NCBI GenBank assembly: GCA_020057295.1
Contig: JAGVGF010000006.1
Location: 96,001-160,000 of the forward strand
Source of the DNA: an archaeon
GTDB lineage: Archaea; Nanobdellota; Nanobdellia; Woesearchaeales; UBA9642
Length of the DNA stretch: 64,000 nucleotides
Direction of reading: 5' to 3'
Part shown: in pieces, positions 1,982-35,214 of the stretch
Numbering within the stretch: position 1 is the first letter of the stretch
Layout of the letters: the number at the start of each line of letters is the position of its first letter
The notes under the pieces: generated by a model
What the model saw: only the letters and a program-made list of their open reading frames with translations
The model's database searches: none
Told to the model about the DNA's origin: nothing
Made by a program: the position numbers and the translations under genes

Positions 1982-2024
1982 TGGGCTTCCCAAGAGTCGA
2001 ACCCGGGGTCTTTCCGTTGCGAAC
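1982..2024 (-). pseudogene. tRNA 3'-half fragment (anticodon loop to acceptor end)
   Basis: Minus strand GTTCGCAACGGAAAGACCCCGGGTTCGACTCTTGGGAAGCCCA; 24 bp (2001-2024) identical to tRNA-Ala 2125-2148; T-arm intact; no matching 5' half. Confidence 0.75.
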
Positions 2025-2028
2025 ACAC

Positions 2029-2083
2029 GTACCCTTTACAAAAGGTTACATCGAAAGTAATCAAGGACAACATAAAGTTGTCC
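2029..2083 (-). repeat. Two-hairpin cassette, copy 1
   Basis: GGACAAC-TTTAT-GTTGTCC followed by TTTCGAT-GTAACCTTT-TGT-AAAGGGTAC; similar to 34540-34591. Confidence 0.6.
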
Positions 2084-2105
2084 GAATTTCTACAATAAAA
2101 TAACA

Positions 2106-2177
2106 TGGACAAGCCGGGAATCGGACCCGGGGTCTTTCCGTTGCGAACGGAACGTATTACCATTCTACTACTTGCCC
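2106..2177 (-). tRNA. tRNA-Ala(CGC), no intron, CCA not encoded
   Basis: GGGCAAG/CTTGTCC acceptor with G3:U70, anticodon arm TTCCG-TTCGCAA-CGGAA, T-arm CCGGG-TCCGATT-CCCGG, discriminator A. Confidence 0.93.
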
Positions 2178-2245
2178 AATTATTAACAATTTAATAAAAG
2201 GTATTATAAACAAACTTTATAAATTATTCTCTTATCTTGAATGAT

Positions 2246-3943
2246 ATGAATATCAGTGAATTACAATTAAGTATCAGAAAGCATGCATTAGCTAATGCTG
2301 TAAAATTCAATGGAAAAGCTAATCCTGGTTCTGTAATAGCAAAGATAATTGCAGAATTTCCGGAAGCAAAATCTGATATGAAAACAGTAAGTAAAGAAGT
2401 TAATGAAATTATAAAACATATCAACGAATTACCTTTGGATGTGCAAATGCATGAGTTAGAAGAACAATTTCCAGAAATGTTAGAAAAGAAGGAAAGAGAA
2501 GAAAGAAATATTTTTGCATTCTTAAATATTAAACCAGGAGAGAGGGTAAAAACGGGATTTCCGCCAGGACCGGAAAAATATCCGCATATAGGACATGCAA
2601 AATCTGCATTAGTAAATTATCTAATAGCAAAACAGTATGGCGGAGAATTTGTATTAAGATTTGAAGATACAAATCCTAATCTTGTAAAAGCAGAATTTTA
2701 CGACGTGATACAAGATAACTTAGCTTGGGTAGGGGCTAAATGGGATGAGTTACAATATGCTTCTGATTATATGGAATTATTTTATGAGTATGCTCTTAAA
2801 GTAATACAAAACGATAAGGCGTATATGTGTTTCTGTGATGATGAAAAAATAAAAAAATCAAGAGCTGAAGGACAAGCATGCAAGTGCAGATCACATACTG
2901 TTGCTGAAAATCTAAAATATTGGAACGAGTATAATACATATCCTGAAGGTAAAGCAATACTTAGACTAAAAATTGATTTAGAACATCAAAATAGCACAAT
3001 GCGTGATCCTACTATATTTAGGATTATAGATACGCCACATGCAAGACATGGAACAAAATATCGTATATGGCCTAATTATGATTTCCAAAATTCTATAATG
3101 GATGGATATTTCAAATTAACTCACCGCATACGTGGAAAAGAGTTTGAGATGCGTAACGAATTACAAAGATATATACAAGAAATATTAGAATTACCTCAAA
3201 CAAACATCTACGAATATGCCAGATTTAATATGGTGGGTGTTGAAAGTTCTGGCAGAAAAATAAGAGAATTAGTTCAGAGCGGAGAGTATATTGGATGGGA
3301 TGATCCTAGACTAACAACTATAGTAGCTCTTAGAAGAAGAGGATTTCTTCCAGAGGCAATAAAAAATTTTGTGTTAAGTAGTGGAATGAATAAATCCGAA
3401 AGTACAATGACTTGGGATGATTTGATAATACAAAACAAAAGAATAGTGGATAAGACAGCTAAAAGGTTTTTCATGATGCATGATTATGAAACAATAACAA
3501 TAGAAGGAGCACCACATCAAATATTAAAATTAAGATATCACCCAGATATTGATGAATTAGGACATAGAGAATTAGAAGTAGAAAAAGAATTTTTAATACT
3601 AAAATCCGACTTAAAAGAATTGAAAGATAATGATTTATACAGGTTTATGGATTGTTTAAACTTTAGAAAAAACGAGCAAATATATACTTTTGATAGTCAA
3701 GAATATGAACATTTTAAAAATAAAGGCAGAAAAATAATGCACTATCTACCAGCGTATGGAAATATAGATGTAGAGATATTTATGACTGATGCAACAATCA
3801 TTAGTGGAGTTGCAGAGCATAATATAAGGCATTTAAAAGTTAACGAAGTGATACAATTTGAAAGATTCGGATTCTGTCGATTAGATGCAATAGAAAAAAA
3901 GAATGGAAAAGAAATTTACAAATTCTGGTTCACACACAAATAA
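2246..3943 (+). CDS. gltX: Glutamate--tRNA ligase (archaeal type)
   Basis: HIGH motif, LRFEDTNP, RIWPNYDF, GWDDPRL, QFERFGF; ATG 2246 preferred over TTG 2237. Confidence 0.95.
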   Translation: MNISELQLSIRKHALANAVKFNGKANPGSVIAKIIAEFPEAKSDMKTVSKEVNEIIKHINELPLDVQMHELEEQFPEMLEKKEREERNIFAFLNIKPGERVKTGFPPGPEKYPHIGHAKSALVNYLIAKQYGGEFVLRFEDTNPNLVKAEFYDVIQDNLAWVGAKWDELQYASDYMELFYEYALKVIQNDKAYMCFCDDEKIKKSRAEGQACKCRSHTVAENLKYWNEYNTYPEGKAILRLKIDLEHQNSTMRDPTIFRIIDTPHARHGTKYRIWPNYDFQNSIMDGYFKLTHRIRGKEFEMRNELQRYIQEILELPQTNIYEYARFNMVGVESSGRKIRELVQSGEYIGWDDPRLTTIVALRRRGFLPEAIKNFVLSSGMNKSESTMTWDDLIIQNKRIVDKTAKRFFMMHDYETITIEGAPHQILKLRYHPDIDELGHRELEVEKEFLILKSDLKELKDNDLYRFMDCLNFRKNEQIYTFDSQEYEHFKNKGRKIMHYLPAYGNIDVEIFMTDATIISGVAEHNIRHLKVNEVIQFERFGFCRLDAIEKKNGKEIYKFWFTHK

Positions 3944-3945
3944 AA

Positions 3946-4383
3946 CTAACACACAGATAAAATCTTTGCATCTTCAATTTGTTTTTTGTTTCTCAAAGCA
4001 CGATATGTGGTTATGGGTCCGCGAGTTATCGAATTCTTAACAACGCCATAAGCCGTTCCTAGAGCATGTCCAACTGCACCAGTTGCATATCCAGCAACTA
4101 ATCCCAAAGGTACGCTAAGACCGCCTGATATTATTGCCATAGGAAGATATGTGCCAGTAATTGAATCATCATAAGGGAAACTGTTACCAGCCAAAAAATT
4201 CCAAGCACAATATCCTGCTAACGATGCTAAGCCTAAAAATGTTGCTCCTCCGCCTAAAAGAGCGGTTGTGCAACTTACATTATCAGCACAGTTGGAGACA
4301 GATTCTCTTATTTTATAATTTTCAAATAGTTCTCTATTAACTACGTTTTCTAAATCTTTATTTTTTGTAATTGTATTGTTCAT
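3946..4383 (-). CDS. Hypothetical membrane protein with glycine-zipper segments
   Basis: 145 aa ORF, SD-like GAGGGG, two Gly/Ala-rich hydrophobic stretches. Confidence 0.7.
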   Translation of the reverse strand: MNNTITKNKDLENVVNRELFENYKIRESVSNCADNVSCTTALLGGGATFLGLASLAGYCAWNFLAGNSFPYDDSITGTYLPMAIISGGLSVPLGLVAGYATGAVGHALGTAYGVVKNSITRGPITTYRALRNKKQIEDAKILSVC

Positions 4384-4447
4384 TGTTAATCCCCTCTTTT
4401 TTAGAGATAAAAAATCTCTTATATACCACTATGTAGTGAATATTATA

Positions 4448-4488
4448 TTTAAATGTTTGTTGGTTTAAAAAACCGACATATTTATATA
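4448..4488. promoter_or_regulatory. Back-to-back TATA boxes flanking a palindromic operator
   Basis: TTTAAAT-gtt-TGTTGGTTT-aaa-AAACCGACA-ta-TTTATATA between divergent genes. Confidence 0.6.
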
Positions 4489-4509
4489 GCTAAATTATTA
4501 AATTAGAGC

Positions 4510-5241
4510 ATGACCAATCAAGCACTCGTTGATGCTCTTAATTTTTATGGATTCTCAGATAAAGAAACAAAAGTGTATCTCACAACACTAGAATTAGGTT
4601 CAGCCACAGCACAAGCCATATCCGAAAGAAGTACTCTTAACAGATCAACAGTATACGACATATTGCGATCACTAATATCTAAAGGAATAATATCTAATTC
4701 AGAAAAAAATTCTACACAGTACTTTGAAGCAGCAGGACCAGAAAAGCTTTTAGGAATACTAGATGAAAAACGTAACAAAATACAAAACGTGATGAAAGAA
4801 TTAAAGTTAGTGCAAGAATACGTAGTAAATAAACCAAAAGTAAGAGTTTTTACAGGAAAAGAAGGATTCAACACAGTGTTGGAAGATATATTATACACGA
4901 AAAAACATACAGATGTAATATCAACATCAAAAATATTTGACATAATGAGATTTGACTTTCCACACTATATAATAAACAGAGCCAAATATGGAATTACAGC
5001 GAGAGTAATACAAGAAGACTCGCAGGAAACAAAAGATCTAAAAAAATCTGACAAGAAACAATTAAGAGAAACAAGATCTATAAAATCATGGAATATAAAC
5101 AGCATGATGTTCATGTACTCAAACAAAACAGCAATAATAAAATTAGTAGAAGGAGAAATAATAAGCATATTAATCGAGGATAAAACATTATATGAAGATA
5201 ATGAAAAAATATTTGAAGTTCTTTGGGAAAAAGCAAAATAA
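4510..5241 (+). CDS. TrmB family transcriptional regulator
   Basis: GFSDKETKVYLTTLELG...RSTVYDILRSLISKG wHTH; V.VF.GKEG; C-terminal FEVLWEKA. Confidence 0.88.
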   Translation: MTNQALVDALNFYGFSDKETKVYLTTLELGSATAQAISERSTLNRSTVYDILRSLISKGIISNSEKNSTQYFEAAGPEKLLGILDEKRNKIQNVMKELKLVQEYVVNKPKVRVFTGKEGFNTVLEDILYTKKHTDVISTSKIFDIMRFDFPHYIINRAKYGITARVIQEDSQETKDLKKSDKKQLRETRSIKSWNINSMMFMYSNKTAIIKLVEGEIISILIEDKTLYEDNEKIFEVLWEKAK

Positions 5242-5286
5242 TTAAATTTATATACAATATAACTAATAAAATCTAAAGGTGATATC

Positions 5287-5457
5287 ATGAATGAATGGGT
5301 TATAGTTAAGACGAAAATTAAGGAAATGGTTGGAACATATAATGTATCACAAGATTTTACAGAAACATTAAATGCTAAAGTAAAACAGATGATACAAGAC
5401 TCTATGAAAAGAGCAGAAGCTAATGGTAGAAAGACAGTCATGGGACGAGACTTATAA
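5287..5457 (+). CDS. Histone-fold protein (DUF1931-like, 56 aa)
   Basis: Manual translation MNEWVIVKTKIKEMVGTYNVSQDFTETLNAKVKQMIQDSMKRAEANGRKTVMGRDL; SD AGGTGA and TATA upstream; histone RKTV...D motif. Confidence 0.88.
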   Translation: MNEWVIVKTKIKEMVGTYNVSQDFTETLNAKVKQMIQDSMKRAEANGRKTVMGRDL

Positions 5458-5465
5458 GAATTTTT

Positions 5466-5894
5466 TTATACATAACTTTTTTGTTCTAATAACATTTTCA
5501 GTCGAAGAATAGTACTTTGTAAAATAGGAATCTTAGGATTATGTTTGTCTGTAGACTTTACTTTTATCAACAATAATTCAGCATTTTCCAAATCATTTCT
5601 CAACTCAAGAAGTAAAGGATCATCAATAATTCGTTTAACTTTCTCGTCAATTTTTTCAACAATTTTTGTTTTAGTAAATACAGGCTTTAAAGGATAATGC
5701 AAAGGAATGTGAGACACTTTCTCGTCAATAGTTTTTTCTATTTTATTTTTTATTAAGGGTTTAAATTCTTGAATAGGTCTAGCAGAAGTAACAGTTGGCA
5801 ATACAGAACTCGACTTGAATATTTTATTTAACAATCTATCTTTCTGTGCACTAAGTACTAAATGAGCATATAAATCTAGACGAGGATTTATCAT
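5466..5894 (-). CDS. Hypothetical protein, C-terminal coiled coil
   Basis: 142 aa ORF directly downstream of 5896..6462. Confidence 0.65.
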   Translation of the reverse strand: MINPRLDLYAHLVLSAQKDRLLNKIFKSSSVLPTVTSARPIQEFKPLIKNKIEKTIDEKVSHIPLHYPLKPVFTKTKIVEKIDEKVKRIIDDPLLLELRNDLENAELLLIKVKSTDKHNPKIPILQSTILRLKMLLEQKSYV

Positions 5895-5895
5895 T

Positions 5896-6462
5896 TTACA
5901 TTAATCCTAAGAATTTTTTTCTTGAAGTTGGAGGACCATCTAATGGAGGCATCTGATCCATTGGAGGAAGATCATTCATCGGAGAAAATTGCCCCTGATT
6001 AAAATTCATCGACGGAATAGCATTATTAGGTTGCATCGTAGGAGGCATCATAGTCCTATTATTAATATTATTTACTGACGGAGGATTCATCTGCACATTA
6101 TTCATCATAGGTGATTGTATAGATTGATTACCACCTTGCATCGAAGTTTTTGCAACAGTTAAATTGTCGTTAATAGCAAGTAATGCTTTTGCAATCATCT
6201 CGTTCTGTTCTAACAATTTATCTAATTTCTCTGTAGGTTTTGAAGCTTGATATTCTTCAATTATGTCCTTCTGTGCATCGTCAAGAATAGTTATCAATCT
6301 ATTAACCGATATTGTAAGTCTATCCATAGAATCTATTAATGCACGACCTTTTTCGCCATCAGTTAAAGAACCTCGCTTAATTATTGATAGTTCCTTACGT
6401 AAATCGTCAATCTCATGTTTAGGCATGAGCTCGTAATCATCAGAATCTGGACCATTATCCAT
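5896..6462 (-). CDS. Hypothetical coiled-coil protein with M/P/N/Q-rich tail
   Basis: 188 aa, SD GGGGTG, heptad-rich N-half, low-complexity C-half ending RKKFLGLM. Confidence 0.75.
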   Translation of the reverse strand: MDNGPDSDDYELMPKHEIDDLRKELSIIKRGSLTDGEKGRALIDSMDRLTISVNRLITILDDAQKDIIEEYQASKPTEKLDKLLEQNEMIAKALLAINDNLTVAKTSMQGGNQSIQSPMMNNVQMNPPSVNNINNRTMMPPTMQPNNAIPSMNFNQGQFSPMNDLPPMDQMPPLDGPPTSRKKFLGLM

Positions 6463-6606
6463 ACTACACCCCTTTCAATAAGAATACTAGTATTTTGATT
6501 TATATATTTTTCCCTTTTGATAGACTTATTATCGAATAGCATTATCAGATAAATTATCGAACAGTATTTAAAAAAAATTTATAAATATACCACAATTTAT
6601 CAGTTT

Positions 6607-7926
6607 ATGATTGATATAAAGCTCATTAGAGAAAATCCTGAACGTGTAAAGGATAATATTAGAAGAAAGTTTCAAGATGAAAAAATAAAATTTGTAGATG
6701 AAATTCTAGAATGGGATAGAGAACTAAAAATAATTAAAGGAGAGTCTGAATCATTAAGAAACCGAAGAAATGTATTGAGTGAAGAGATAAATAAACTGAA
6801 GAAAGAAAAAAAGGAAATAACTCACGTATTACAAGAAGTTAAAGAAATACCTGAAAAAATTAAGAAGATAGAGGAAAAAATATTACATTTAGAAGATAAA
6901 ATCAATAAGAATATGCTTCAGATACCAAATATCATTTATGAAAATACACCCTCAGGAAAAGATGCTGGTGAAAATGTTGAATTAAGACGTTGGGGAACTA
7001 TTAAAAAGTTTGATTTTACACCAAAGACACACATAGAATTAGCTGAAAGTCTTGATATAGCAGATTGGGATGCTTCAGCAAAAGTTTCTGGGACAGGATT
7101 TTATTATTTAAAAAATGAATTAGCATTATTAAATCAGGCATTGATAAGATTTGCTATAGATTTTATGATAAATAAAAATTATGAGTATATAGAACCACCA
7201 TTAATGTTGAATGAAAAAGCAATATTTGCATCTATGGATAAGACAGCAATAGAACAATCAGTATACTCTATAAAAGATGAAGATCTTAATTTAATAGGAA
7301 CGTCTGAACAAGCAATACTTGCAATGCATACTAATGATACAATTCCAGAATCAGAATTGCCTAAAAAATATTTTTCATATTCTATGTGTTTTAGAAAAGA
7401 AATCGGAGCGCACGGTATAAATGAGAAAGGATTATGGAGAACACATCAATTTAACAAAGTAGAGCAATTCATTTTTTGCAGTCCAGAGGATTCAGAAAAA
7501 TATTATGATGAGTTGTTGAATAATTCGGAAAAAATATTACAAGCACTAGAAGTACCATATAGAGTAATAGAACTTTGTACAGGAGATTTAGCGGATTGGA
7601 AATATAGAAGTGCAGATGTAGAAGTATGGAGACCAACAACAAACGAATACGGTGAAGTAATGTCTTTATCAAATTGTACAGAATATCAGGCAAGAAAATT
7701 AAATATTAGATGCGTAGATAAAAAAGGAAATAAACGAGTTTTACATACACTGAATGACACAGCACTAGCAACATCAAGAATAATGGTTGCAATCTTAGAA
7801 AATAATCAGAATATAGATGGTAGCGTCACAATACCAAAAGTCCTTGTGCCATTTATGCATGGACGTACAGTCATTGCTCCAAAAAACAGAGTTCAGACAG
7901 CATTTACAGGACAAGAAAAAGAATAA
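6607..7926 (+). CDS. serS: Serine--tRNA ligase
   Basis: MIDIKLIREN start, LIGTSE, FRKE motif 2, HQFNKVEQF, HTLN.TALA..R. Confidence 0.96.
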   Translation: MIDIKLIRENPERVKDNIRRKFQDEKIKFVDEILEWDRELKIIKGESESLRNRRNVLSEEINKLKKEKKEITHVLQEVKEIPEKIKKIEEKILHLEDKINKNMLQIPNIIYENTPSGKDAGENVELRRWGTIKKFDFTPKTHIELAESLDIADWDASAKVSGTGFYYLKNELALLNQALIRFAIDFMINKNYEYIEPPLMLNEKAIFASMDKTAIEQSVYSIKDEDLNLIGTSEQAILAMHTNDTIPESELPKKYFSYSMCFRKEIGAHGINEKGLWRTHQFNKVEQFIFCSPEDSEKYYDELLNNSEKILQALEVPYRVIELCTGDLADWKYRSADVEVWRPTTNEYGEVMSLSNCTEYQARKLNIRCVDKKGNKRVLHTLNDTALATSRIMVAILENNQNIDGSVTIPKVLVPFMHGRTVIAPKNRVQTAFTGQEKE

Positions 7927-8014
7927 TTCTCACTTAATAGTGACAAATTTCGTAAAGTATTTAAAGCAAAGAATTTGTCATTCAAATATAAAAATAGTAG
8001 AACAACTTATAAAA

Positions 8015-8740
8015 ATGAACAATCCAACATTAGAATCAATAGCAAAAGAACCTTTCAAAAGAGATATAAGAGGAAGAGTAATATGGTTCAAAGAAGATAA
8101 TGCTCGACTCGCAGCAGCATACGTCTTGAAAAATCTAGGTTATGATCTCGATATGCCTCGAGAGAAAAAAGTTCAATTTCTAGAACAAATAACAGAATAT
8201 AAAAGTATAATAACTCCCAAACATAACGGCGCAACAGGATTCTTATGTGAAAGGGCAAACCTTGCAGGATTATTAAATCACAGCAGGGCATATATGGACT
8301 ACGTAAAAAGCAGTCCGTTAGAATTCTTCAAATGGTTAGATCCGACTATTTTAGATACTAAAGAACAACATCATGTGCATGAATGGGACTTATCAATGAA
8401 TTATTGGGATGATAAACATTATGATATTCATGAGAGAAAGATTAGAAATGCTGTTCAGCATATGTTTGAGGAAAAACTTGGATACAGTTCAATAATGAGT
8501 CCTGAAGAGAAAGTAGAAACGTTTAGGAGTATGTTTGAATATAAAAATTCTGGAGAAGGAGGAGCTTTAAAATACTGTTACAACGTTCTTAAATTAAGAG
8601 GATTGATGAGTATTAAAAGGTCATATCTTGAAAATGTCACAGGAAGTCATCATGCACTTCTAAAATGGTTTTTTGAAGAAGACAAGGAAACTTGGAAGCT
8701 AATAGAAGAAAAATACTATAAAGGTAGAAAAGAAAAATAA
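8015..8740 (+). CDS. Hypothetical two-repeat protein (DUF4046-like)
   Basis: ATG 8015 chosen because the longer ORF overlaps serS; two ~100-aa repeats W..(E)N/KLGY..EYK..G..L.GL..R.Y..S...KW. Confidence 0.65.
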   Translation: MNNPTLESIAKEPFKRDIRGRVIWFKEDNARLAAAYVLKNLGYDLDMPREKKVQFLEQITEYKSIITPKHNGATGFLCERANLAGLLNHSRAYMDYVKSSPLEFFKWLDPTILDTKEQHHVHEWDLSMNYWDDKHYDIHERKIRNAVQHMFEEKLGYSSIMSPEEKVETFRSMFEYKNSGEGGALKYCYNVLKLRGLMSIKRSYLENVTGSHHALLKWFFEEDKETWKLIEEKYYKGRKEK

Positions 8741-8746
8741 TTCAAA

Positions 8747-9121
8747 TTACCAAGTCTCAAATCTTTTATCCATTGCTTCATTAAGTAGCTTATCGGCACC
8801 CAATGATTTGTCAACTACAATATTTGTTTTTCCACAATAAGGACACTTAGAAACTTCTTGCGTAGATTTTCTGGAAAACTTGTAATGACAGCTGGTACAG
8901 ATATATCTAACCATCTTTTCAGTCTTTTCTGAAGTCTTCTTAACTGGTGGTTTATGTTCAGCAGCAATTTCCGAGACACTAGCTGTTGCACCCTTTAATG
9001 AAGAATTACGCTTATAACAGTCTACACATATCATATTTTCTCCACTAGAATCGGTTCTCATGTTGTGCATTAAGACTTTTCTACCACAACTTCTACATAC
9101 AATTAATAAATTATCATCCAT
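8747..9121 (-). CDS. Small zinc-ribbon protein
   Basis: CRSC, CVDC, CTSC, CPYC pairs; SD AGGTGA. Confidence 0.75.
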   Translation of the reverse strand: MDDNLLIVCRSCGRKVLMHNMRTDSSGENMICVDCYKRNSSLKGATASVSEIAAEHKPPVKKTSEKTEKMVRYICTSCHYKFSRKSTQEVSKCPYCGKTNIVVDKSLGADKLLNEAMDKRFETW

Positions 9122-9180
9122 AATAATCACCTACAATCGTTAATAACTATTCTATAATAGTGTAAAGATATTGTATTTAT

Positions 9181-9999
9181 TTATATTTTTTTCTCTATTG
9201 CTTGCGTTAAGTCCTTAATATTCTCTATGGCTATGATTAATTTAGGGTTCTTAATCTTTATATCATCAAAATGCAGTGTTATTTTGTCAGCAGTCTCTAA
9301 AATGTATCTTAACCAGAACTCTACACTCTTATCCTTCCATGAAATTTTATGTTCTTCAAGAAAATCTATGAACTTTGTTAACTTAGTTAATGAATCCTCA
9401 ATATTTGTTATCACCATCAAGTATTGTGAATCACTAATTTTATGTTTGTGAATATTCTTTACACTAAACATTGTGTCGATATCCAAAAATGTGACATATA
9501 ATCCGTCAATTATAGCTTCAATTTCTTTAATATCTACGTCATGTTTTGTCTTAGATTTGAATTCGGATTTTATCCTATCGATATCTGTTCTGAATATAGA
9601 CATTGTTAGTATCATGGTATTAATTTTTCTATCTTGCGTATGATGCACATGATAGTGAGGAAAAATATGTTTTTGTAATAGCTTATCAATTAGTATTAAT
9701 ATTAGTATCGCACTAAGTATCAACTGTATGTATATTACTATCTGTAATGTTGAACTTGCATTAATTTTTACAACACCGAATATCGTAGCTGTAAGAAAGC
9801 TCAAGTATAATGATTCTAACAACCCATTAAATGTAAAGGATATATTCAATCCATTAAAAGTTAATTCCGAAAAAATAAAAGGCAATAATGAATATATTAT
9901 TGCGAATAAGAATATAGAAATAAGCCACGACATAAAAAAATTTAGGAACGAAGTCTTTCTAATCCATTCAAATAATCCCACCTTTTCTGTCATGTCCAT
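9181..9999 (-). CDS. Potassium-channel-like 2TM protein with degenerate filter and helical C-domain
   Basis: TM - ESLYLSFLTATIFG - TM arrangement resembles the Ion_trans_2 pore (YFS..T.T.GYGD). Confidence 0.6.
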   Translation of the reverse strand: MDMTEKVGLFEWIRKTSFLNFFMSWLISIFLFAIIYSLLPFIFSELTFNGLNISFTFNGLLESLYLSFLTATIFGVVKINASSTLQIVIYIQLILSAILILILIDKLLQKHIFPHYHVHHTQDRKINTMILTMSIFRTDIDRIKSEFKSKTKHDVDIKEIEAIIDGLYVTFLDIDTMFSVKNIHKHKISDSQYLMVITNIEDSLTKLTKFIDFLEEHKISWKDKSVEFWLRYILETADKITLHFDDIKIKNPKLIIAIENIKDLTQAIEKKI

Positions 10000-10272
10000 A
10001 AAATGATATACTAAATTTATAAATATGATTATTTATTGATGACGCATTATTCAATAAGAGTTCTTAATGCTGAAAATAAACAAAAATAGAGACATTTTGT
10101 GCTTATTTAAGCATAAACCATAACATTTAAATATAACAACATACTAAAAGATATTCTAGTATACAAAAGAGTATATTTGATGAGAGTTTTAGATAATTGA
10201 AATATCAATAAATATCGACGGTAAAAAACATTTAACGGAACAATTAGAATCGTTGGAACAAAGTAGATTAAA

Positions 10273-26499: not shown

Positions 26500-26520
26500 T
26501 TCTAATTATTAATAAAAAAG

Positions 26521-27255: not shown

Positions 27256-27282
27256 TTAAAACATTAATCTAACCATTCTAGT

Positions 27283-28203
27283 CTATTCTAATCTCGTCTT
27301 ATAGAAATGATGATTCTGTATCGGAACTATTTGCGAATATCGTATCATGTCATGAAATTGACTTCGGACTTTATTCAATTTCTCATTTATATGAACATAA
27401 TTATTATCAACTATCTCAAACATATAACTGAATTCTCCAACGCATGCGAATCTACGCACAACTAATGGATCAAGTTTTAGTTGAGAGTTAAATTTTAAAA
27501 AATCATCAAATTTATCGTCAGCAAATTTTAATAACACGCTATAATACATGAATCCTTCCCTATCAAAATCTATTACTGTTAAAAAATTCTCTATCACTTT
27601 ATTTTTTATTAGATGTTTTAGTCTATTATGGACAATATCGTATGTTAACCCTGTAATCTTAGATAGTTCTAACGCACTTAATCTGCAATTGATGCTTAGT
27701 TCATTCAATATTTTTTTGTCTTTGTCGTCTATTTCTACACTAATTACGGGTTTTTCTAATCTTTGAAGTATAAAATGTGAAGTTATTATCTTTTTCTTTA
27801 CGAAAAATTGTTGTAACTCAAGCATCATCTTGTATAAATCCTTAGTGATTATTTTTAGGTTATAACTATATTGTGTAATAGATTTCATTATAATTATGCA
27901 TCCGTTGATTTGACTTAATTCTTTGATAAATTCTGTCTCATCTTCTATGTATCGTGTTTGTATAAAAATATAATATGTCGCATATCCTATTTTTTGATAA
28001 TCGATATATGCATGAAATCCTTTGATAACCTTGTCCTTAACTAATTTATTTATTCTATAAAGTGCGGTTTGTTTACTTACACGACATTTTGTTGCTAAAT
28101 CTTTTAGCGGAATGCGTGCATTATCCCTTAAAGCGCTTAATATTTTTATATCTACCTTGTCTAATTCAGAACCTTCAAATAAATATTCTATCATTCCATC
28201 CAT
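27283..28203 (-). CDS. Tandem (double) Lrp/AsnC family regulator
   Basis: LDKVDIKIL..L..NAR and IDDKDKKIL..L..NCR HTH units, each followed by a RAM-like domain. Confidence 0.85.
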   Translation of the reverse strand: MDGMIEYLFEGSELDKVDIKILSALRDNARIPLKDLATKCRVSKQTALYRINKLVKDKVIKGFHAYIDYQKIGYATYYIFIQTRYIEDETEFIKELSQINGCIIIMKSITQYSYNLKIITKDLYKMMLELQQFFVKKKIITSHFILQRLEKPVISVEIDDKDKKILNELSINCRLSALELSKITGLTYDIVHNRLKHLIKNKVIENFLTVIDFDREGFMYYSVLLKFADDKFDDFLKFNSQLKLDPLVVRRFACVGEFSYMFEIVDNNYVHINEKLNKVRSQFHDMIRYSQIVPIQNHHFYKTRLE

Positions 28204-28311
28204 AAAATAGTATAATTATGTATTATTTATATATTTTTCCTAAATTATTAGAATTTTCTACATTGTTATTTTATTATGCCAAGAAGCTATACTAATACTA
28301 TCATTATTTGA

Positions 28312-28330
28312 TTCCGAAATATTTTCGGAA
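28312..28330. promoter_or_regulatory. Palindromic operator candidate
   Basis: TTCCGAAA-TAT-TTTCGGAA between the Lrp gene and the divergent ORF. Confidence 0.5.
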
Positions 28331-28389
28331 AAATAAGAAATAGTGTAATAAATATAAAACAATTTAAAAAAAAAATACGAGGGATTAAT

Positions 28390-29364
28390 ATGGCAAGCGT
28401 AACATTGGATAAAGTTGTACAGAATGTTGGAACATTTAAAGGAGATATAAAGGAACAACGAAGAGATTATGAGAGAGCAAAACAAGGCGTCGAATTATTA
28501 GATAACGACCTAAGTAAAGAAAAACTTGAAGATGCATTAAGAAGAGCTTCTGAGTATAGTGAATTTAACATACCAACTGCGCCAGTAGATACAGAGATAG
28601 TTCGTGGAGATGTTTCATTTAATGTAAGATCTGAAGCAACAACTAAAAGACCACAATACAAAACAGCTGTTACAGGAATAGAAAATTACATTAATGGCAC
28701 ACATTTTTTAGTTAATAATGGACATACAATTACAGGAGTTGTTAAAGAAGGAAATAAATGGTATGTAGCAACAGACACTTTACTCGAACATTGTGAAATT
28801 ATGCTAGCAAGCATAATGATTCCGGATATTAAACAAACAATAACATACATTCTAAGCGGAGATTTGTCTGCCGAACCAACACCAAAAACAATTGATTTGG
28901 GAAGTCAAAAGTCTTCACGTGCATTAAATGCAGAGAATTTTGCAAATTATGCAAGAAGAGATAGATTGAGACAAGATCTAAGTAAATTTGTTGAATCATA
29001 CGAGCTAGCACTATCTCAAGAAGAAAAAACAGGAGAAGGTATTGTACAAGTAAATACTAGAGCAGGTTACAAAGAAGAGAAAATTAAGAGCAAAGGTGCA
29101 AATTGGGCATATGTAGCAAAGACTCTGATAAGAATTAAAGAAAAAGATGATGAAGGAGAATTAAACATGCTAGCTGATTCGGAAACAAGTCTTGCATCAA
29201 AGAAGCGCGAATTACCATTCTACGACTTGAGAACAAGAGATGTAAGAGGAAGCGAAAAAGTATATGTTAGTCTACAAAGTGTATACGATAGAATACAAGA
29301 TTTAAAGGAACAGGAAGTAATCAAATCAAGTAGAAGTAAAATCAAGGCACAAGAAATCGTATAA
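28390..29364 (+). CDS. Hypothetical protein
   Basis: 324 aa ORF, SD GAGGG, no recognisable motif. Confidence 0.75.
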   Translation: MASVTLDKVVQNVGTFKGDIKEQRRDYERAKQGVELLDNDLSKEKLEDALRRASEYSEFNIPTAPVDTEIVRGDVSFNVRSEATTKRPQYKTAVTGIENYINGTHFLVNNGHTITGVVKEGNKWYVATDTLLEHCEIMLASIMIPDIKQTITYILSGDLSAEPTPKTIDLGSQKSSRALNAENFANYARRDRLRQDLSKFVESYELALSQEEKTGEGIVQVNTRAGYKEEKIKSKGANWAYVAKTLIRIKEKDDEGELNMLADSETSLASKKRELPFYDLRTRDVRGSEKVYVSLQSVYDRIQDLKEQEVIKSSRSKIKAQEIV

Positions 29365-29428
29365 GATATCTAAATAAACGTAGAAAAATTTTTATTTTAT
29401 TTTTTTATATAAGGTTTTTATTTTTTTC

Positions 29429-29758
29429 TTATACTTTTTGATGTTTTTCCAAATAAAGTTTCACGTGCGAGTCAATCATAGGATTAGCACCCTTATCTAA
29501 TTCATAAATAATATTTTCTGATGTTCCACCCCATGAATATTTACCTGATTTTTTATCAATTTTATAGATTTTAAACTCTCCTGTGGATACGCCCTTCTTT
29601 AAATGATAATATATTAATCTCATCGTCACAGGAGGATATAACTCTATATATACTTTGTATAATTCATAACCATGTAATTTTTTATAGAAATATAATATCT
29701 CTACAATATTCTGTCTAACTTTTGATCCTAATGGTCTTCCTTGTTTTCTATCAGGCAT
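29429..29758 (-). CDS. Small winged-helix-like protein
   Basis: ATG 29758 (MPDRKQGRP..S.VRQNIVEIL...GYELYK.Y...T.RLIYYHLKKG); the longer start overlaps the next gene. Confidence 0.7.
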   Translation of the reverse strand: MPDRKQGRPLGSKVRQNIVEILYFYKKLHGYELYKVYIELYPPVTMRLIYYHLKKGVSTGEFKIYKIDKKSGKYSWGGTSENIIYELDKGANPMIDSHVKLYLEKHQKV

Positions 29759-29808
29759 AATATTTATTCGATGAATAACTTTAAAAAGTTGATGCCTATA
29801 TTGTTTGT

Positions 29809-30774
29809 ATGCATCTATTAATTTTATCTGGGGAAAACTTAGAATTAGCAAAGATTGAAGCAGAATCATTACTTGGTTTAGAAAGTACATCGCTTGTTAA
29901 TGAGCAATTATACTGTACAATACCAACAGAAAATATTAATAAAATTTCACGATTAGCATACACTAAAAAAGTTTATGAGATAGCATATATCACAAATATT
30001 AACAATTTGGAATCTTCACTCGAAGCATATCCTTGGATTAATAATTATAAAAAAAATTTTTGTATAAGGTTAGAATCAAATTCTCAACGTAATGAGAAAT
30101 ACTATGCTAAATTTGTTTGGAAAAGCTTAGAAAAACACGTAACTCCAAAGGTTAATTTAGAAAATTCTGATTTATTAATAGAAATATTTATTCATGAAGA
30201 TGCAGCGATAGTATGCAGATTTATTTATGAAAACTTTGAGGATTTTGAATCTCGTAAAGCACACTTTAGGCCAGTATTACATCCAACAGCGATGCATCCA
30301 AAGATGGCGCGAGGACTTGTTAACATATTAAATCCTAAACCTAAAGAATTTATTATTGATCCATTTTGTGGTGCATGCGGTATATTAACTGAAGCGGGTT
30401 TGATGAATTTAAAATTTAAAGGTTATGATATCGATAAAAAAATAATTTCCGATGCTAAAACAAATTTACAACACTACACAATTAATTCTAAAAATTATAA
30501 AATAATAAAAAAAGATTCCACAACAATAAAAAAATTAAAGAATATAGTCACGGATTTACCTTATGGACTTAGTTCTAAAAAATCTGAAGAATTAAACAAA
30601 TTGTATTCTAAATTTTTAAAAAATGTTTCTGGTAATGCTGTTATTGTGATGCCAGATTTTATTAATTATAAAAAATTATTGAAAGAAAATTTATCAAAGA
30701 GACTCAAAGTAGTTAAAATTATAGATTATTACGTGCATAAGAGCTTGACCAGAAAAATAATAATTATAAAATAA
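29809..30774 (+). CDS. tRNA (guanine-N2)-methyltransferase, Trm11/TrmG10-like (THUMP + MTase)
   Basis: LSGEN.ELA..E, HP.AMHPKMAR..VN, DPFCG..GIL.EA, TDLPYG, VHKSLTR. Confidence 0.85.
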   Translation: MHLLILSGENLELAKIEAESLLGLESTSLVNEQLYCTIPTENINKISRLAYTKKVYEIAYITNINNLESSLEAYPWINNYKKNFCIRLESNSQRNEKYYAKFVWKSLEKHVTPKVNLENSDLLIEIFIHEDAAIVCRFIYENFEDFESRKAHFRPVLHPTAMHPKMARGLVNILNPKPKEFIIDPFCGACGILTEAGLMNLKFKGYDIDKKIISDAKTNLQHYTINSKNYKIIKKDSTTIKKLKNIVTDLPYGLSSKKSEELNKLYSKFLKNVSGNAVIVMPDFINYKKLLKENLSKRLKVVKIIDYYVHKSLTRKIIIIK

Positions 30775-30775
30775 A

Positions 30776-31591
30776 TTATTTCTTGAAATGTTCCTTATGT
30801 GCTTCATCTTCGAATAATTTTAAAGCATCATCTACAGACATATTTTCGTGGACCATCATTCTTGCAGCTTTGCTTATAGCGTAAGGTTTATCGTGTTGCC
30901 ATACATTTCTTCCTATAGCAAGTCCTGTGACTCCTGTTTTTAAAACTTCGTCAATTTTCTTAAAGAAGGAATGTTCATCAGTTTTACTTCCACCTGCAAC
31001 AAGAACTTTTGATCTTCCAGCACATTTTACAACCCATTTGAATGCTTCAGGATCATTAGGATACTTTATCTTAATAAAATCTGCACCAAGTTCTTGACCA
31101 ATACGTGCAGCGTAAGCTAATTGATTTACATCAAGTTCGTTAGTTATTTTTGGACCATTGAGATACACCCACGCAATTACCGGTATTCCATAATCGTGAG
31201 ATTGCTCGATTACTTTTCCTAATGTTTCGAACTGTTCTGGTTCCGTAACACTGCCTACAGACATCTTGTAACCGATGGCACTTGCACCAATTTTGACAGC
31301 TCTATCAACAGAACAGAAAGGTTTTGAAATTAAAGATGCATCTGTTAGACTGGTTTTTCCATTAATTTTTACAACTAGAGGAACATCTCTATAATAACTG
31401 TGATAGAATTTCTCAGCAATTCCAGAATGAACTATTACTCCATTGTACATTCCTTCTAACGCAATATCGAAAATATATTTTGGATCAACATTTTGCAAAT
31501 TAAGATCCACAGGACCGTGCTCTAATCCTTGATCGTGTGCAAGAAGTAGTGATCGACCATTCTTCATTAGCTTACTAGTATTAACTCTCAT
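30776..31591 (-). CDS. Class I fructose-bisphosphate aldolase (archaeal DhnA type)
   Basis: A.DQGLEHGP, AYAAR...ELGADFIKIKY (Schiff-base Lys), AGG.K, GRNVWQ. Confidence 0.88.
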   Translation of the reverse strand: MRVNTSKLMKNGRSLLLAHDQGLEHGPVDLNLQNVDPKYIFDIALEGMYNGVIVHSGIAEKFYHSYYRDVPLVVKINGKTSLTDASLISKPFCSVDRAVKIGASAIGYKMSVGSVTEPEQFETLGKVIEQSHDYGIPVIAWVYLNGPKITNELDVNQLAYAARIGQELGADFIKIKYPNDPEAFKWVVKCAGRSKVLVAGGSKTDEHSFFKKIDEVLKTGVTGLAIGRNVWQHDKPYAISKAARMMVHENMSVDDALKLFEDEAHKEHFKK

Positions 31592-31654
31592 AACACACCT
31601 CTTTAGCTATAATTATGAACTATTATTTTAAATAGTTTCCTATTTGAGAAGGAT

Positions 31655-32320
31655 TTATTCGTATAATATTTGATTTATGTACTTGAAAAGAGATTTGTGA
31701 TCTTTAAATATTTTTTTAGCGCCTTTCAGATATTTTTCTCCAAGAGTTGTTTCAATTGCGAGTACATTAAGTTTTGATCTTATCGCACTTTCTATTCCTA
31801 GAGGAGCGTTTTCAATAACAATAATATTTTTCTGACTCACATCACTTTTAGTCAGTTTTAACATCTTCAAGGCTTTAAGATATGGTTCTGGAGAAGGTTT
31901 TCCATTTTTAATATCATCACCAGAAACAACAACTTCGAATAATCCACTGAAATATTTTTTTATGATGGTGTTAGAAAATTCCTTATTAGCGCCTGTAACT
32001 ACAGCCATTCTAACACCTTTAGACTTAAATAGTTTAAGATTTCTCAAAACATGCGGGAACATCTTTATTTTAAACGTTTTAGCTAATAATCTCTTCTTTT
32101 CTAAATATATTTCATGCTCTTGAGCTTCTGTGAATTTTATATTATGCCTTTTTGCAAACAACTCTATAGTCTGCTCATAACTCATTCCTTCACAAAGTGC
32201 CAATTCTTCGTTTGTTATAGAAACATTATGATCCTTAAACGCCTTTCCCCAAGAGCTAATATGATACTTCATACTGTCAATAAGAACGCCGTCCATATCA
32301 AAAATGATAATTTTTGTCAT
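31655..32320 (-). CDS. HAD-superfamily phosphatase (beta-phosphoglucomutase-like)
   Basis: FDMDGVLIDS, GKPSPEPY, IENAPLGI. Confidence 0.85.
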   Translation of the reverse strand: MTKIIIFDMDGVLIDSMKYHISSWGKAFKDHNVSITNEELALCEGMSYEQTIELFAKRHNIKFTEAQEHEIYLEKKRLLAKTFKIKMFPHVLRNLKLFKSKGVRMAVVTGANKEFSNTIIKKYFSGLFEVVVSGDDIKNGKPSPEPYLKALKMLKLTKSDVSQKNIIVIENAPLGIESAIRSKLNVLAIETTLGEKYLKGAKKIFKDHKSLFKYINQILYE

Positions 32321-32364
32321 AGAATCAAATCCTAATTAAAGTTATATTTATTAGTTAGATTTAT

Positions 32365-33366
32365 TTATAATTTCTTCTGTAATACTTGTCTATGATCGCG
32401 CTCTGCCATCACAAAAGCTCTTGTATCTAACAATTTGGTTTTAGCCCCTAATCCAGATATTAGTGATTCTGCATTTAGCATTCCGAGTTTTAACGAGGAA
32501 GATATATCTTTACCCATTATTATAGAAGCAACAAATCCTGAAGCAAATGCGTCTCCTGCTCCGGTAGTTTCTACAACTTTTACTTTGGCGGGTTTTGCGC
32601 TATAAACATACTCGTCATAACTATTATAACAATGCGCACCGTTATGTCCATCCGTTATCACTATAATTTTTGGACCGAGCTTCGATACTTCAAATAATAG
32701 GTTGAATATGTTATCAGTATTATCTGATACTAATGCCTGCGCTTCTTCTTTATTGAATATTAATATTTCTATATTTTTTATTATTCTTTTTATTTTGCTC
32801 TTGTTAGTATTTATTAAATATATGCTTGGATTGTATGCTACGCTGATATTTTTACGTTTGGCATATTGTATAATTTTTTCTTGGGTTATTAAACTTTCCT
32901 TTAGCATTGATGACGCATATATCCATTTAGAATCAATGTTTTTAAAATCTATATCGTTTCGTGACAGGTCATCATTGCATCCCTTATAAGTAAATATTGT
33001 TCTATCATCATGTACTGAATCTAATATTACTGAGTATCCTGAAATATCACCATATGCTCCTATAAAAGTTACATGTTCTTTAAATAAACATTCTAGAATT
33101 GTTTTACCATTATCATCTTTACCAATTTTTCCTAGATATGCTGTTTTTAGTCCTAATCTTGAGAATGCTACTGCAGTGTTTGTTCCGCCACCACCTATGA
33201 AAAATTTTAATTCTTTAATAAGTATTTTAGCACCTAACGGGTATGCTATATCTACATGTTTATGTATCCTTAATACTTCCGACTGTGTAGGATCTGTATG
33301 TACAAATACGTCAACAGTTGCAGAACCAATGGTTATAATATCATACTTGTTACCGAACGGAGCCAT
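32365..33366 (-). CDS. PfkB family carbohydrate kinase
   Basis: GGGGTN.A...SRLG, N.EEA, ETTGAGDAFASG. Confidence 0.9.
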   Translation of the reverse strand: MAPFGNKYDIITIGSATVDVFVHTDPTQSEVLRIHKHVDIAYPLGAKILIKELKFFIGGGGTNTAVAFSRLGLKTAYLGKIGKDDNGKTILECLFKEHVTFIGAYGDISGYSVILDSVHDDRTIFTYKGCNDDLSRNDIDFKNIDSKWIYASSMLKESLITQEKIIQYAKRKNISVAYNPSIYLINTNKSKIKRIIKNIEILIFNKEEAQALVSDNTDNIFNLLFEVSKLGPKIIVITDGHNGAHCYNSYDEYVYSAKPAKVKVVETTGAGDAFASGFVASIIMGKDISSSLKLGMLNAESLISGLGAKTKLLDTRAFVMAERDHRQVLQKKL

Positions 33367-33428
33367 ACACACCTCTTAATACTCAAATCATGAGTTAGAG
33401 TATTTATAAATTTTGTTTAGAACACTAT

Positions 33429-34436
33429 TTAGAATCTTATATTGTCTAGTATAGAATGTGCATTTGTACTGTTTAAGTGTTTAGAAAATTCATTCCATTC
33501 TTTCCCGAGTTTTGTGCTAAATTTTGTTTGTAACATTTTAGTTTCTTCATCACTAACTCTAACATATTGATCTATATCTATCAAGCCGTAAGGATATCCT
33601 AAAAATATAGGATCATTAGAATTTTTGTATAAAATAGAGAATATTTCTTGAATATCTCCTTCAAACTCTTTTTGTATTTCAAATCTAAAAACATAATCGG
33701 ATTTTTTGTTTAATTTTACGAAGTATAATTCTGCTAAATGTTTAGGATTGTTGTTTGTAACAATAGGGTAATAAGTCCAAGAATTTAATGAAGAAGTTTT
33801 ACCTAAATCTAATAATTTTTTTGTGATACTTAAACCGTTTTTTGTCACTAAAGTACATGTTTTGCTCAACGCACAAACTTTTTTGGTCAATAATAATTTA
33901 TCTAAATATTTATCCTCTAAAGGATATCTCGCTTCCATTGTTCCATCTAATAATATAAAATCTACATCCTTGCTGTGTATATATGCATATTCTAATTCTG
34001 CGAATCTGCGTATTATAGAAACAATTCTGCTAACACCACATTTTTCTATGCCGTTTTTTAATAATTCATCATCGGGATTAAATATCATATTATTAAATGA
34101 TTTGTCTGGATACGTTTTTACAATAAATTTTCCGTTGTCTTCACGTATAAAAATATAAAATTCTTCTTTATTGCGCGACAAACGTTTATTATTAGTATAA
34201 ATTATACTTCCTACTCGTATTATACCTATACAAAATTCTGCACTTTCAAACAAGACACTATTCCCTCCATCCACAAACATTATTTTGGAATCAGAATTAG
34301 AAGTTATGTTTCGGATTTCATGAAAATTTTCTTGACTAATTTTCAAAGGAGCATATTTAGAATTCATTAATAAATAATCATCGCCGACATCTTTTTTAGA
34401 AACTATATTTCTTAATTCTTTAACCAAATTATCCAT
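33429..34436 (-). CDS. nurA: NurA-family nuclease
   Basis: FVDGG, R..AE, LLDG, ALSK, GYPYGL..ID..VR. Confidence 0.78.
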   Translation of the reverse strand: MDNLVKELRNIVSKKDVGDDYLLMNSKYAPLKISQENFHEIRNITSNSDSKIMFVDGGNSVLFESAEFCIGIIRVGSIIYTNNKRLSRNKEEFYIFIREDNGKFIVKTYPDKSFNNMIFNPDDELLKNGIEKCGVSRIVSIIRRFAELEYAYIHSKDVDFILLDGTMEARYPLEDKYLDKLLLTKKVCALSKTCTLVTKNGLSITKKLLDLGKTSSLNSWTYYPIVTNNNPKHLAELYFVKLNKKSDYVFRFEIQKEFEGDIQEIFSILYKNSNDPIFLGYPYGLIDIDQYVRVSDEETKMLQTKFSTKLGKEWNEFSKHLNSTNAHSILDNIRF

Positions 34437-34509
34437 AATCTGAAGAATAAAGAATGATATAAAAATGTTATTAAAAAGAATTAGAATAAAAAAATAATTG
34501 ATAAAAAAA

Positions 34510-34539
34510 TTATATTTCCTTCTCTGGATGGAAAGGTTT
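34510..34539 (-). repeat. Displaced, diverged copy of the last 10 codons of CDS 34594..35214
   Basis: AAACCTTTCCATCCAGAGAAGGAAATATAA (KPFHPEKEI*) vs AAACCATTCCATCCAGAAAAAGGGATATAA (KPFHPEKGI*), 25/30 identical. Confidence 0.8.
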
Positions 34540-34591
34540 GCACCTTTTTACAAAAAGCTGCACCAAAAACATAAAGGTTGCCAAAGGCAAC
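34540..34591 (-). repeat. Two-hairpin cassette, copy 2
   Basis: GTTGCC-TTT-GGCAAC followed by TTTTGGT-GCAGCTTTT-TGTA-AAAAGGTGC; similar to 2029-2083. Confidence 0.6.
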
Positions 34592-34593
34592 TC

Positions 34594-35214
34594 TTATATC
34601 CCTTTTTCTGGATGGAATGGTTTTGGCATTTCGTATAATGTCTTTAATTTTAAGTATTGTTTAATAGTGTTTTGTAATCTATATACAGTCTTGTATAGGT
34701 TGACTTTGTGAGTTTCAATCTGTTCCTTATATATTCTATTTCTAAATAATTTATCTACTTTTTTTAGTATTGGATGTGTAACCCATTCGCCTTTGTAATC
34801 TAACTGTAACCATGCTTCTATATCTATTATGCAATCTCCACGATCTGTCTTCATCTTATAACCTTGATGCATTATCTCTATACTTTTCATGTTAATAGTT
34901 GTGAAATCTATCTTAATAAAATATCTATAATAATCACTATTTGTCGGATCTTTAACACAACGCCATCTAATTCTATGTTCCTTAGCTCCTGTTCCTAAAA
35001 TTCTTTCTAGATAGAATACTTCAGGATTTCCGGAAGTTCCACGCTCGCCATAAATATCTCTGAATCCTTCTTCATCAAGCCAATCATGTATTAATTTGTA
35101 AAGGTTTTTCATGTGGAATGTTTCTTCATTCTCAACCATTACCTTAGCCACTAGAATATCTTTACTACCCTTATCAGGAGTGTCCCTCTTTTCAAACTTA
35201 AACAATTTACCCAT
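34594..35214 (-). CDS. Hypothetical protein
   Basis: 206 aa ORF with globular composition, TATA upstream. Confidence 0.75.
   Translation of the reverse strand: MGKLFKFEKRDTPDKGSKDILVAKVMVENEETFHMKNLYKLIHDWLDEEGFRDIYGERGTSGNPEVFYLERILGTGAKEHRIRWRCVKDPTNSDYYRYFIKIDFTTINMKSIEIMHQGYKMKTDRGDCIIDIEAWLQLDYKGEWVTHPILKKVDKLFRNRIYKEQIETHKVNLYKTVYRLQNTIKQYLKLKTLYEMPKPFHPEKGI

Follow-up and report, generated by a model that had tools for sequence, protein, structure and literature searches.

Two short hairpin cassettes in the DNA analyzed here (the window; 64,000 nucleotides, nt; G000:C3:96001-160000) belong to a repeated family of structured elements that carry no open reading frame (ORF). One lies beside the gene for tRNA-Ala(CGC) and the other beside a coding sequence (CDS) of 206 amino acids (aa), and at both places the cassette separates the working end of the gene from a displaced second copy of that end. 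The reading that we favor, and to which we give an even chance of being correct, is that such cassettes are the arms of an ORF-less mobile family, in which a working copy replaces an older gene and a piece of the older gene is pushed aside. The source genome, G000, was assembled from a metagenome; it comprises 1.2 Mb in 6 contigs at 31% G+C. It is of the DPANN type, and topoisomerase VI, NurA, and an archaeal GluRS, all encoded in it, identify the organism as an archaeon. It is one of the 13 genomes in our genus sample. Below, genomes are coded G###, contigs C#, and loci or metagenome stretches L###.

The features at the tRNA gene, around cassette A, are as follows.

2105..2178, minus strand, intact and working (replacement) tRNA-Ala(CGC) gene, identical at 72/72 nt to the nested "new" tRNA of metagenome contig L161
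2029-2104, minus strand, cassette A as a whole (76 nt), 3' of tRNA-Ala(CGC)
2084..2104, minus strand, outer AT-rich spacer of 21 nt from the tRNA 3' end to hairpin 1, weakly conserved in A-type copies
2065..2083, minus strand, hairpin 1, a perfect 7-bp stem (GGACAAC-TTTAT-GTTGTCC), the most conserved part of the A subtype
2051..2058, minus strand, unpaired octamer ACTTTCGA (family consensus ACTTTTGA, nearly invariant)
2029..2049, minus strand, terminal core hairpin GTAACCTTT-TGT-AAAGGGTAC, whose stem has an A.G mismatch at position 4
2025-2028, minus strand, 4-nt linker GTGT from the core hairpin to the displaced tRNA half
1982..2024, minus strand, 3' half displaced from an older tRNA, starting in the anticodon loop and reaching the 3' end, after the linker

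Those at the CDS, around cassette B, are the following.

34594..35214, minus strand, intact CDS of 206 aa, in no Pfam or NCBIfam family and with relatives in 13/13 genus genomes
34594-34623, minus strand, working copy of the duplicated CDS end (last 30 nt)
34540-34593, minus strand, cassette B as a whole (54 nt), 3' of the CDS
34577..34591, minus strand, hairpin 1, GTTGCC-TTT-GGCAAC
34540..34569, minus strand, U-rich strand TTTTTGGT plus the core hairpin
34540-34561, minus strand, core hairpin GCAGCTTTTT-GT-AAAAAGGTGC, with a G.G mismatch and very like the core of cassette A
34510..34539, minus strand, displaced copy of the CDS end (last 30 nt with the stop codon), directly adjoining cassette B

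Inspection of the sequence placed both cassettes where an earlier note on this DNA had put them, with the displaced copy directly adjacent at the CDS and 4 nt away at the tRNA. It also bore out the claims that all differences between the two window cores are transitions and that two stem pairs covary. The displaced tRNA copy (43 nt) is identical to the neighboring tRNA over its first 24 nt and differs from it at 9 to 10 of the last 19, and the tRNA-Ala(CGC) gene itself is uninterrupted. At the CDS, the displaced and working ends agree at 25 of 30 nt, and four of the five differences fall at third codon positions. Empty alleles, which the note had proposed to look for in sister genomes, exist at both sites: five sister genomes have the tRNA-Ala site without an insertion, and 11 relatives have an empty CDS site. 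In G001, the closest genome, a truncated remnant of the cassette is retained at the CDS, so this insertion is old and predates the split between G000 and G001. As a separate observation, the 206-aa protein has two distant paralogues (about 22 to 30% identity) in each of the 13 genus genomes, often in tandem.

Two other details that had been proposed as shared features fared less well. Both window cores do have a purine-purine mismatch at stem position 4, but this is no rule of the family, where the position is unpaired in 14/38 aligned copies and paired in 24/38. The stretch CAAC(C)TTTATGTT, taken to be a signature common to both cassettes, turned out no commoner than chance (16 found versus 9.9 expected at ≤2 mismatches), and it occupies unlike structural places, namely the stem and loop of hairpin 1 at the tRNA and the 3' arm and spacer at the CDS.

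The family itself is well populated within the genus. A degenerate 22-nt core pattern had 2 exact matches versus 0.04 expected, with 0 of 100 shuffles reaching 3; a core profile search of G000 returned eight strong copies, and with variants included the genome has at least 16. A covariance model built from six canonical copies gave 72 matches in 10 of the 13 genus genomes (11 in G000 and 16 in G010, with none in G001, G008, or G012). The earlier proposal of a repeated, ORF-less mini-element with covarying hairpins is thereby upheld, at a length of about 55 to 85 nt; the window cassettes, at 54 to 76 nt, likewise have no ORF. Across the order, 7 of 151 sampled genomes had matches at E ≤ 1e-4, two of them in the genus and five with single weak matches. 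The architecture is also present in 17 metagenome stretches. Public contigs with exact motif matches all came from archaeal metagenome-assembled genomes (MAGs), labeled Micrarchaeota, Nanoarchaeota, Woesearchaeota, "uncultured archaeon," and, in one case, Methanosarcinales. A diverged relative of the tRNA-side cassette was found in the contigs of a public DNA run (share 0.17), one of which carries the tRNA with a gapped form of the cassette and skips the neighboring gene. Two weak core matches were not counted as copies: the one at window positions 48987-49008 has 3 mismatches, lies inside coding sequence, and is probably due to chance, and the one at C1:162125 (E value of 0.05) is in coding sequence and has no duplication.

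Every arm has the same order of parts, that is, a variable spacer, hairpin 1, the octamer ACTTTTGA, and the terminal core hairpin. Both hairpins covary. In an alignment of 38 copies (33 distinct) that was fitted to the model, which favors the score, 97.1% of cells are paired, 14 of 19 pairs are changed on both sides, and the covariation score is 0.529, compared with 0.151 for shuffles (0 of 500 reached it) and no more than 0.083 for slid partners. Nearly invariant parts include a bulged C in hairpin 1 (34/38), the unpaired ACTTTT(G/T)A, and the loop TTTT-N-GT-AAAA, and subtypes differ chiefly in hairpin 1. Hairpin 1 of the A type recurs with 92 to 100% identity at unrelated loci in six sister genomes, where coding DNA reaches only about 70 to 80% identity, and this is evidence of recent spread. 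The B-type core recurs 3' of tRNA-Gly(TCC) and tRNA-Leu(CAA) in G000 and as the right arm in L161.

Copies sit at the edges of genes and point in a consistent direction. In G000, 15 of 16 lie at a gene boundary or at a leftover piece of a gene (one is unclear), and nine have a partial copy of the neighboring gene's end right after the core. The duplicated 3' ends are those of tRNA-Ala, an intron-bearing tRNA (tRNA-Thr according to ARAGORN), tRNA-Leu(CAA), tRNA-Gly(TCC), the window CDS, and a ligase-like CDS. At tRNA-Glu, tRNA-Pro, and tRNA-Val(CAC), it is the 5' end that is duplicated, and the cassette is inverted. The polarity is the same in every duplication case, with the core against the leftover and hairpin 1 toward the intact gene; the cassette runs in the sense direction at 3' ends and is inverted at 5' ends. 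Duplications accompany 6 of the 8 core-profile copies in G000, 10 of 19 model matches in relatives, and 8 of 15 A-type loci; targets in the relatives include the end of a 5S-like gene and three CDS ends. Their lengths vary from 13 to 57 nt, and the tRNA leftovers begin in the T loop, the anticodon loop, or the D-arm region. A scan made independently of the cassettes found a partial end copy within 260 nt of 8 of the 42 tRNA genes called by ARAGORN with its intron option; 2 of 10 flagged cases had been dropped as false, reflecting likeness to a neighboring tRNA.

At tRNA 3' ends in G010 and G002, "gene end plus cassette" is repeated in four tandem arrays of 2 to 3 units, with periods of 87 to 108 nt, at the following loci.

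G010:C7:199661-199910
G010:C10:187445-187587
G002:C4:92675-92837
G002:C16:27581-27827

Superficially, these resemble a clustered regularly interspaced short palindromic repeat (CRISPR) array with one repeated spacer.

Some observations lie beyond the modeled cassette types. A further type of hairpin cassette, GTGCGCAAGAAC-TTTC-AGTTCTTTGCG and similar, shows the same behavior at L050/L098 (G007:C53), L004, and L068 (G005:C38); in G007:C53, it is followed by a copy of a tRNA-Val 3' end, with a canonical cassette right behind. At two related loci, L105 (G003:C86) and L103 (G003:C60), an A-type cassette lies within an apparent structured RNA gene with complementary ends, and in G003:C86 another hairpin insert, of about 48 nt, interrupts the core hairpin. 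In L025 (G014, from another genus of the family), three unrelated hairpins and a 13-nt copy of the 3' end (12/13) come after tRNA-Ala(CGC), and the phenomenon may be wider than the modeled cassette types.

The second copies are remnants of alleles other than the neighboring working gene, and the tRNA-Ala locus is where this is clearest. The "diverged copy" there is the displaced 3' half of an older tRNA, and it misfits the window's own tRNA. In G007, at the same GluRS-linked locus, a leftover tRNA 5' half lies upstream of an inverted arm; this 5' half and the window 3' half overlap by GTTC, and joining them yields what ARAGORN calls as a tRNA of 72 nt, its acceptor stem paired at 7/7. G010, too, has an inverted arm upstream of tRNA-Ala, and at the position of the window cassette it has another arm subtype and the 3' half of another allele. 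In L161, the whole nested form can be read in order. Promoter TTTATAAAG precedes a 5' half that stops in the anticodon loop; then come an inverted canonical arm and a complete tRNA-Ala, followed by a B-type arm that resembles the window CDS cassette and by a decayed 3' half. At least three allele types appear at this locus as leftovers or newcomers.

Comparisons of alleles, which are small (three tRNA fragments and three CDS ends), gave the same picture, as the leftover was closer to alleles of other genomes than to the adjacent working gene in G010 (42/45 versus 32/45), in L161 (33/34 versus 30/34), and in the window (35/43 versus 29/43). Among the CDS ends, seven of the eight differences between the working and displaced copies in G009:C77 are synonymous, and in G006:C15 both frames and stops are intact despite 12 differences in 57 nt. 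The ends of YjbQ-like genes were tried as evidence of linkage and set aside; they gave a hint that the last 21 nt move together with the arm (3 differences between G006 and G010 versus 5 to 7 to others), but there were too few sites.

The earlier note had proposed insertion near gene ends together with a replacement end. In agreement with this, the portion on the hairpin 1 side behaves as the replacement and the copy on the core side as the displaced original. The cassette is better regarded as one arm of a larger unit, however, some copies have no duplication, and young duplications include intergenic bases. We infer the mechanism, because no enzyme was found. The outer edge of an arm would be the base of its core hairpin, so that host sequence always begins directly after the core. 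The element would land inside an essential gene (a tRNA, a 5S rRNA, or a CDS end), and only copies bringing a working version of the broken part would survive. A complete unit would thus consist of the old 5' piece, an inverted arm, the whole new gene, an arm, and the old 3' piece; at tRNA-Ala, this would amount to two inverted arms around a replacement tRNA, nested in the anticodon loop of the older gene. Cargo would travel with the arms, and recombination between the duplicated gene segments could then remove one side, leaving a solo arm and one leftover, as in both window copies. What moves the element may be host recombination or an enzyme provided in trans.

A number of observations count against this reading. 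The two-armed nested form has been seen only at the tRNA-Ala locus family, the two arms of L161 are of different subtypes, and L161 was the only case with both cores intact around a tRNA in a scan of all collected loci. Six copies in G000 abut an intact gene edge without a duplication, and this reading accounts for them only as boundary insertions. Three of these are at +1 of tRNA-Cys, tRNA-Gly(GCC), and tRNA-Leu(CAA), the last placing the cassette between the promoter and the tRNA, and the others adjoin the tRNA-Lys 3' end, a stop codon (of a 275-aa CDS), and the ribosome-binding site of an L7Ae-like CDS. The expectation that copies would routinely be followed by a copy of the upstream gene's 3' end holds only in part, as nine of the 16 do have an end copy, some of these are at 5' ends, and six have none. 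Within a single genome, the A-type subtype is found at many targets, which would require a separate cargo for every copy. The duplications of young copies are perfect (44/44, 26/26, 20/20, 17/17, and 14/14) and include 11 to 17 intergenic bases, and the 44/44 duplication of G011:C7 ends 16 nt before the stop codon, with the last residues changed. Together, these young duplications look more like an in-place duplication of the target than like an imported end.

The results of the search for an enzyme belong on the same side of the balance. Family searches of G000 gave no match to Cas1, reverse transcriptase, TnpB, Y1, OrfB, or rve; Cas1 is present in 1 of the 13 genus genomes, not G000. With respect to a related autonomous insertion sequence (IS) transposase, no Y1, OrfB, TnpB zinc ribbon, or rve was found in G000 by searches that did not include DDE_Tnp_1 and IS110. 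The earlier statement that the window contains no integrase or transposase agrees with these whole-genome searches, and both recombinases of G000 are outside the window. The sole tyrosine recombinase (PF00589) is on contig 6, in an 11.4-kb island (about 97396-108818) that begins right after an intron-bearing tRNA-Pro, has 14-bp direct repeats (TCTGGGCGGGGCTA), and encodes the 378-aa tyrosine recombinase and then a 416-aa ORF. The tRNA-Pro beside it bears a hairpin cassette at its 5' end. We rejected this integrase as the cassette enzyme, as the island, the one true integrase island of G000, looks ordinary and has no cassette at its far end; in relatives, integrases adjoin other tRNAs without cassettes, except at one orthologous locus. 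The sole serine recombinase (contig 4, 67094-68320; 409 aa, with Resolvase and Recombinase domains, beside a PadR-like gene) was rejected as well, as it is present in 10 of the 13 genomes, including two without model matches, was not found in two that are rich in cassettes, and has no cassette nearby. Among viral contigs, 0 stretches had the motif with the two patterns searched. As a side observation, reverse transcriptase genes are present in G003, G004 (up to five), G005, G008, and G010, with none in G000.

The core and octamer also occur together inside tRNA genes, in MAGs labeled Micrarchaeota and in metagenome contigs. The tRNA-Asn of L152 has a 46-nt insert at the canonical position that consists of a reverse core plus AUCAAAACU. 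In L100, one tRNA has two inserts, each with an outward core at both ends and complementary octamers, and the same design is seen in L095 and L099. Inside the genus, G004:C54 has a tRNA-Ser-like gene whose T arm is broken by a cassette in reverse orientation. Within G000, 13 of the 42 ARAGORN tRNA genes are more than 100 nt long, as intron-bearing genes are; the program gives wrong names to several of the long tRNAs (Pyl, SeC, and "Gln" for Pro), and several of their extra stretches hold AU-rich CAAAA...TTTTG hairpins resembling the core.

The presence of the module inside tRNA genes makes an intron-derived origin a serious rival, and it also feeds a bolder version of the reading that we favor. 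In this version, which is possible although we regard it as rather doubtful, the family is a "break-and-rescue" selfish element whose arms carry their own essential tRNA, land in the loop of the resident gene, and serially replace alleles across lineages. Arm pairs without cargo would be tolerated in tRNA genes because the host splicing machinery removes them, and they would be an archaeal counterpart of intron-generating transposons.

Alternatively, a cassette of 55 to 85 nt may simply insert at staggered breaks 13 to 57 bp apart, with fill-in producing the long and variable target duplication. Survivors would be the copies whose duplication reaches the gene end, and later divergence would be due in part to allele replacement from other lineages. 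The perfect young duplications with their intergenic bases, the tandem arrays, the occurrence of one subtype at many targets, and the failure of the G011:C7 duplication to restore the original C terminus are all consistent with this. Nevertheless, we consider plain insertion unlikely. No transposase was found in the families searched in G000, and to our knowledge none yields duplications of such variable length. In the window tRNA copy, all differences lie within the last 19 of its 43 nt, the halves left over in G007 and G000 match one another but not the working genes, and the divergence of the CDS ends is near-purely synonymous and without indels, unlike that of a decaying copy. An extra allele replacement would be needed at each diverged locus.

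For the intron-derived origin, the arms would be halves of a tRNA intron of the splicing endonuclease type, an intron-less or foreign copy having recombined into an intron-bearing gene, and spread would be by intron homing or recombination and not by transposition. Fujishima et al. are said to have described, in 2010, archaeal tRNA introns at canonical and noncanonical positions and to have proposed intron transposition. The cassettes resemble such introns in that the module lies inside tRNA genes of related lineages (L152, L100, and G004:C54) and in that junctions fall at usual intron positions, being found in the anticodon, T, and D loops, at +1, and at the 3' end; the 13 long tRNA genes also fit. 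Unlike introns, the copies in the window are found next to leftovers and outside intact genes, one of them at a protein gene, and the window tRNA is uninterrupted. Other copies are at CDS ends, at the end of a 5S-like gene, and upstream of CDS starts. A bulge-helix-bulge motif was not demonstrated in intron-bearing pre-tRNAs by plain minimum-energy folds. On this evidence, we think it improbable that the arms originated as introns.

RNA-guided homing, which the earlier note raised as a speculative possibility with the hairpins as scaffold and the gene-like stretch as guide, in the manner of TnpB/IscB omega-RNAs, finds agreement only in its layout of a hairpin followed by target-like sequence and appears very improbable. 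The TnpB-type families PF07282 and PF01385 are absent from G000 by searches that did not include IscB. The supposed guide is a duplicated or displaced gene piece, whereas the guide of an omega-RNA is an unduplicated flank; its length is 13 to 57 nt, its orientation is sense at 3' ends but antisense at 5' ends, it is sometimes a whole tRNA, and at tRNA-Ala it is half of an older gene. Finally, ordinary terminators with independent local duplications, or an assembly artifact, can be set aside with near certainty, since the T4-T5 runs on the cassette strand downstream of genes and the metagenomic source of the assembly stand against the same architecture in 10 of 13 independently assembled genomes and 17 metagenome stretches, strong covariation, inverted copies at 5' ends, copies between promoter and tRNA, and the presence, among the contigs of a public run, of a diverged cassette related to the tRNA-side one.

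Several known systems resemble in part what we propose, namely, mobile arms that bring a working copy and displace an older one. Sublocations of integration within tRNA genes were reportedly described by Williams in 2002. In tRNA-gene integrase islands (the "Islander" logic), a regenerated target and a displaced fragment form direct repeats, according to the available portions of PMC4383910 and PMC9897764. The cassettes are like these tyrosine-integrase islands in that an intact target and a partial, displaced copy of it form direct repeats, in that junctions lie in the anticodon and T loops, and in showing a block of identity up to the gene end as well as tandem copies. Unlike them, the cassette unit measures 55 to 85 nt, with no integrase and no other ORF, and it hits 5' ends, a 5S-like gene, and CDS ends too. 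Islands have one attachment specificity, whereas A-type and canonical arms are each found at many tRNAs and CDSs, and at tRNA-Ala a whole gene is supplied and not the 3' end alone.

Fungal mitochondria offer another likeness. As described in the accessible part of PMC3630166, endonuclease ORFs there make "gene hybrids" (Allomyces atp6; Glomus atp6, atp9, cox2, and nad3), in which a foreign in-frame C-terminal part is inserted, the native C-terminal part is left downstream and is closer to relatives, and the endonuclease ORF between the ends has been shown to drive mobility. As far as that part of the source describes the hybrids, the cassettes share the working end and the displaced native end closer to relatives (for three tRNA fragments and three CDS ends) and differ in having two hairpins only, with no ORF between the ends, and in occupying archaeal chromosomes, mainly at tRNA targets. 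Allomyces mitochondrial DNA also has double-hairpin elements, two-hairpin repeats with evidence of mobility (from the available text of PMC3787672, citing Paquin et al. 2000).

Like those elements, MITEs (miniature inverted-repeat transposable elements), and repetitive extragenic palindromic (REP) elements, the cassettes are short, ORF-less, structured, multicopy, mostly intergenic, and apparently mobilized in trans. Unlike a MITE, a solo arm consists of two different hairpins and has no terminal inverted repeats, inverted arm pairs having been seen only in L161 and in the inserts of L095, L099, and L100. Duplications are also not short and fixed as for MITEs, with a possible 4-nt overlap (GTTC) at tRNA-Ala only. 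No parent IS or RAYT-type gene was found in G000, and the strict gene-end polarity and long gene-end duplications are unlike both MITEs and REP elements. Integration of the casposon or Cas1 type produces a duplication of about 14 to 15 bp at tRNA or gene 3' ends; the variable duplication lengths and the absence of Cas1 from G000 differ from this. In the literature, of which coverage was partial and left out supplements such as the tRNA-fragment lists of PMC9897764 that might bear on the matter, we came across nothing on archaeal hairpin arms that lack an ORF and accompany replacement gene ends.

If the reading of the cassettes as mobile arms is correct, an ORF-less hairpin element would be able to invade essential single-copy genes of very small archaeal genomes by bringing a spare copy along, a logic so far tied to integrase islands and mitochondrial endonuclease ORFs. 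On the practical side, the annotation of tRNAs and the search for islands in genomes of this kind could then be misled by the leftovers and arms. The reading would also provide a concrete and testable route for tRNA allele turnover and for the origin of tRNA gene fragments in DPANN-type archaea, and the intron-resident copies may bear on the gain of introns or the splitting of archaeal tRNA genes.

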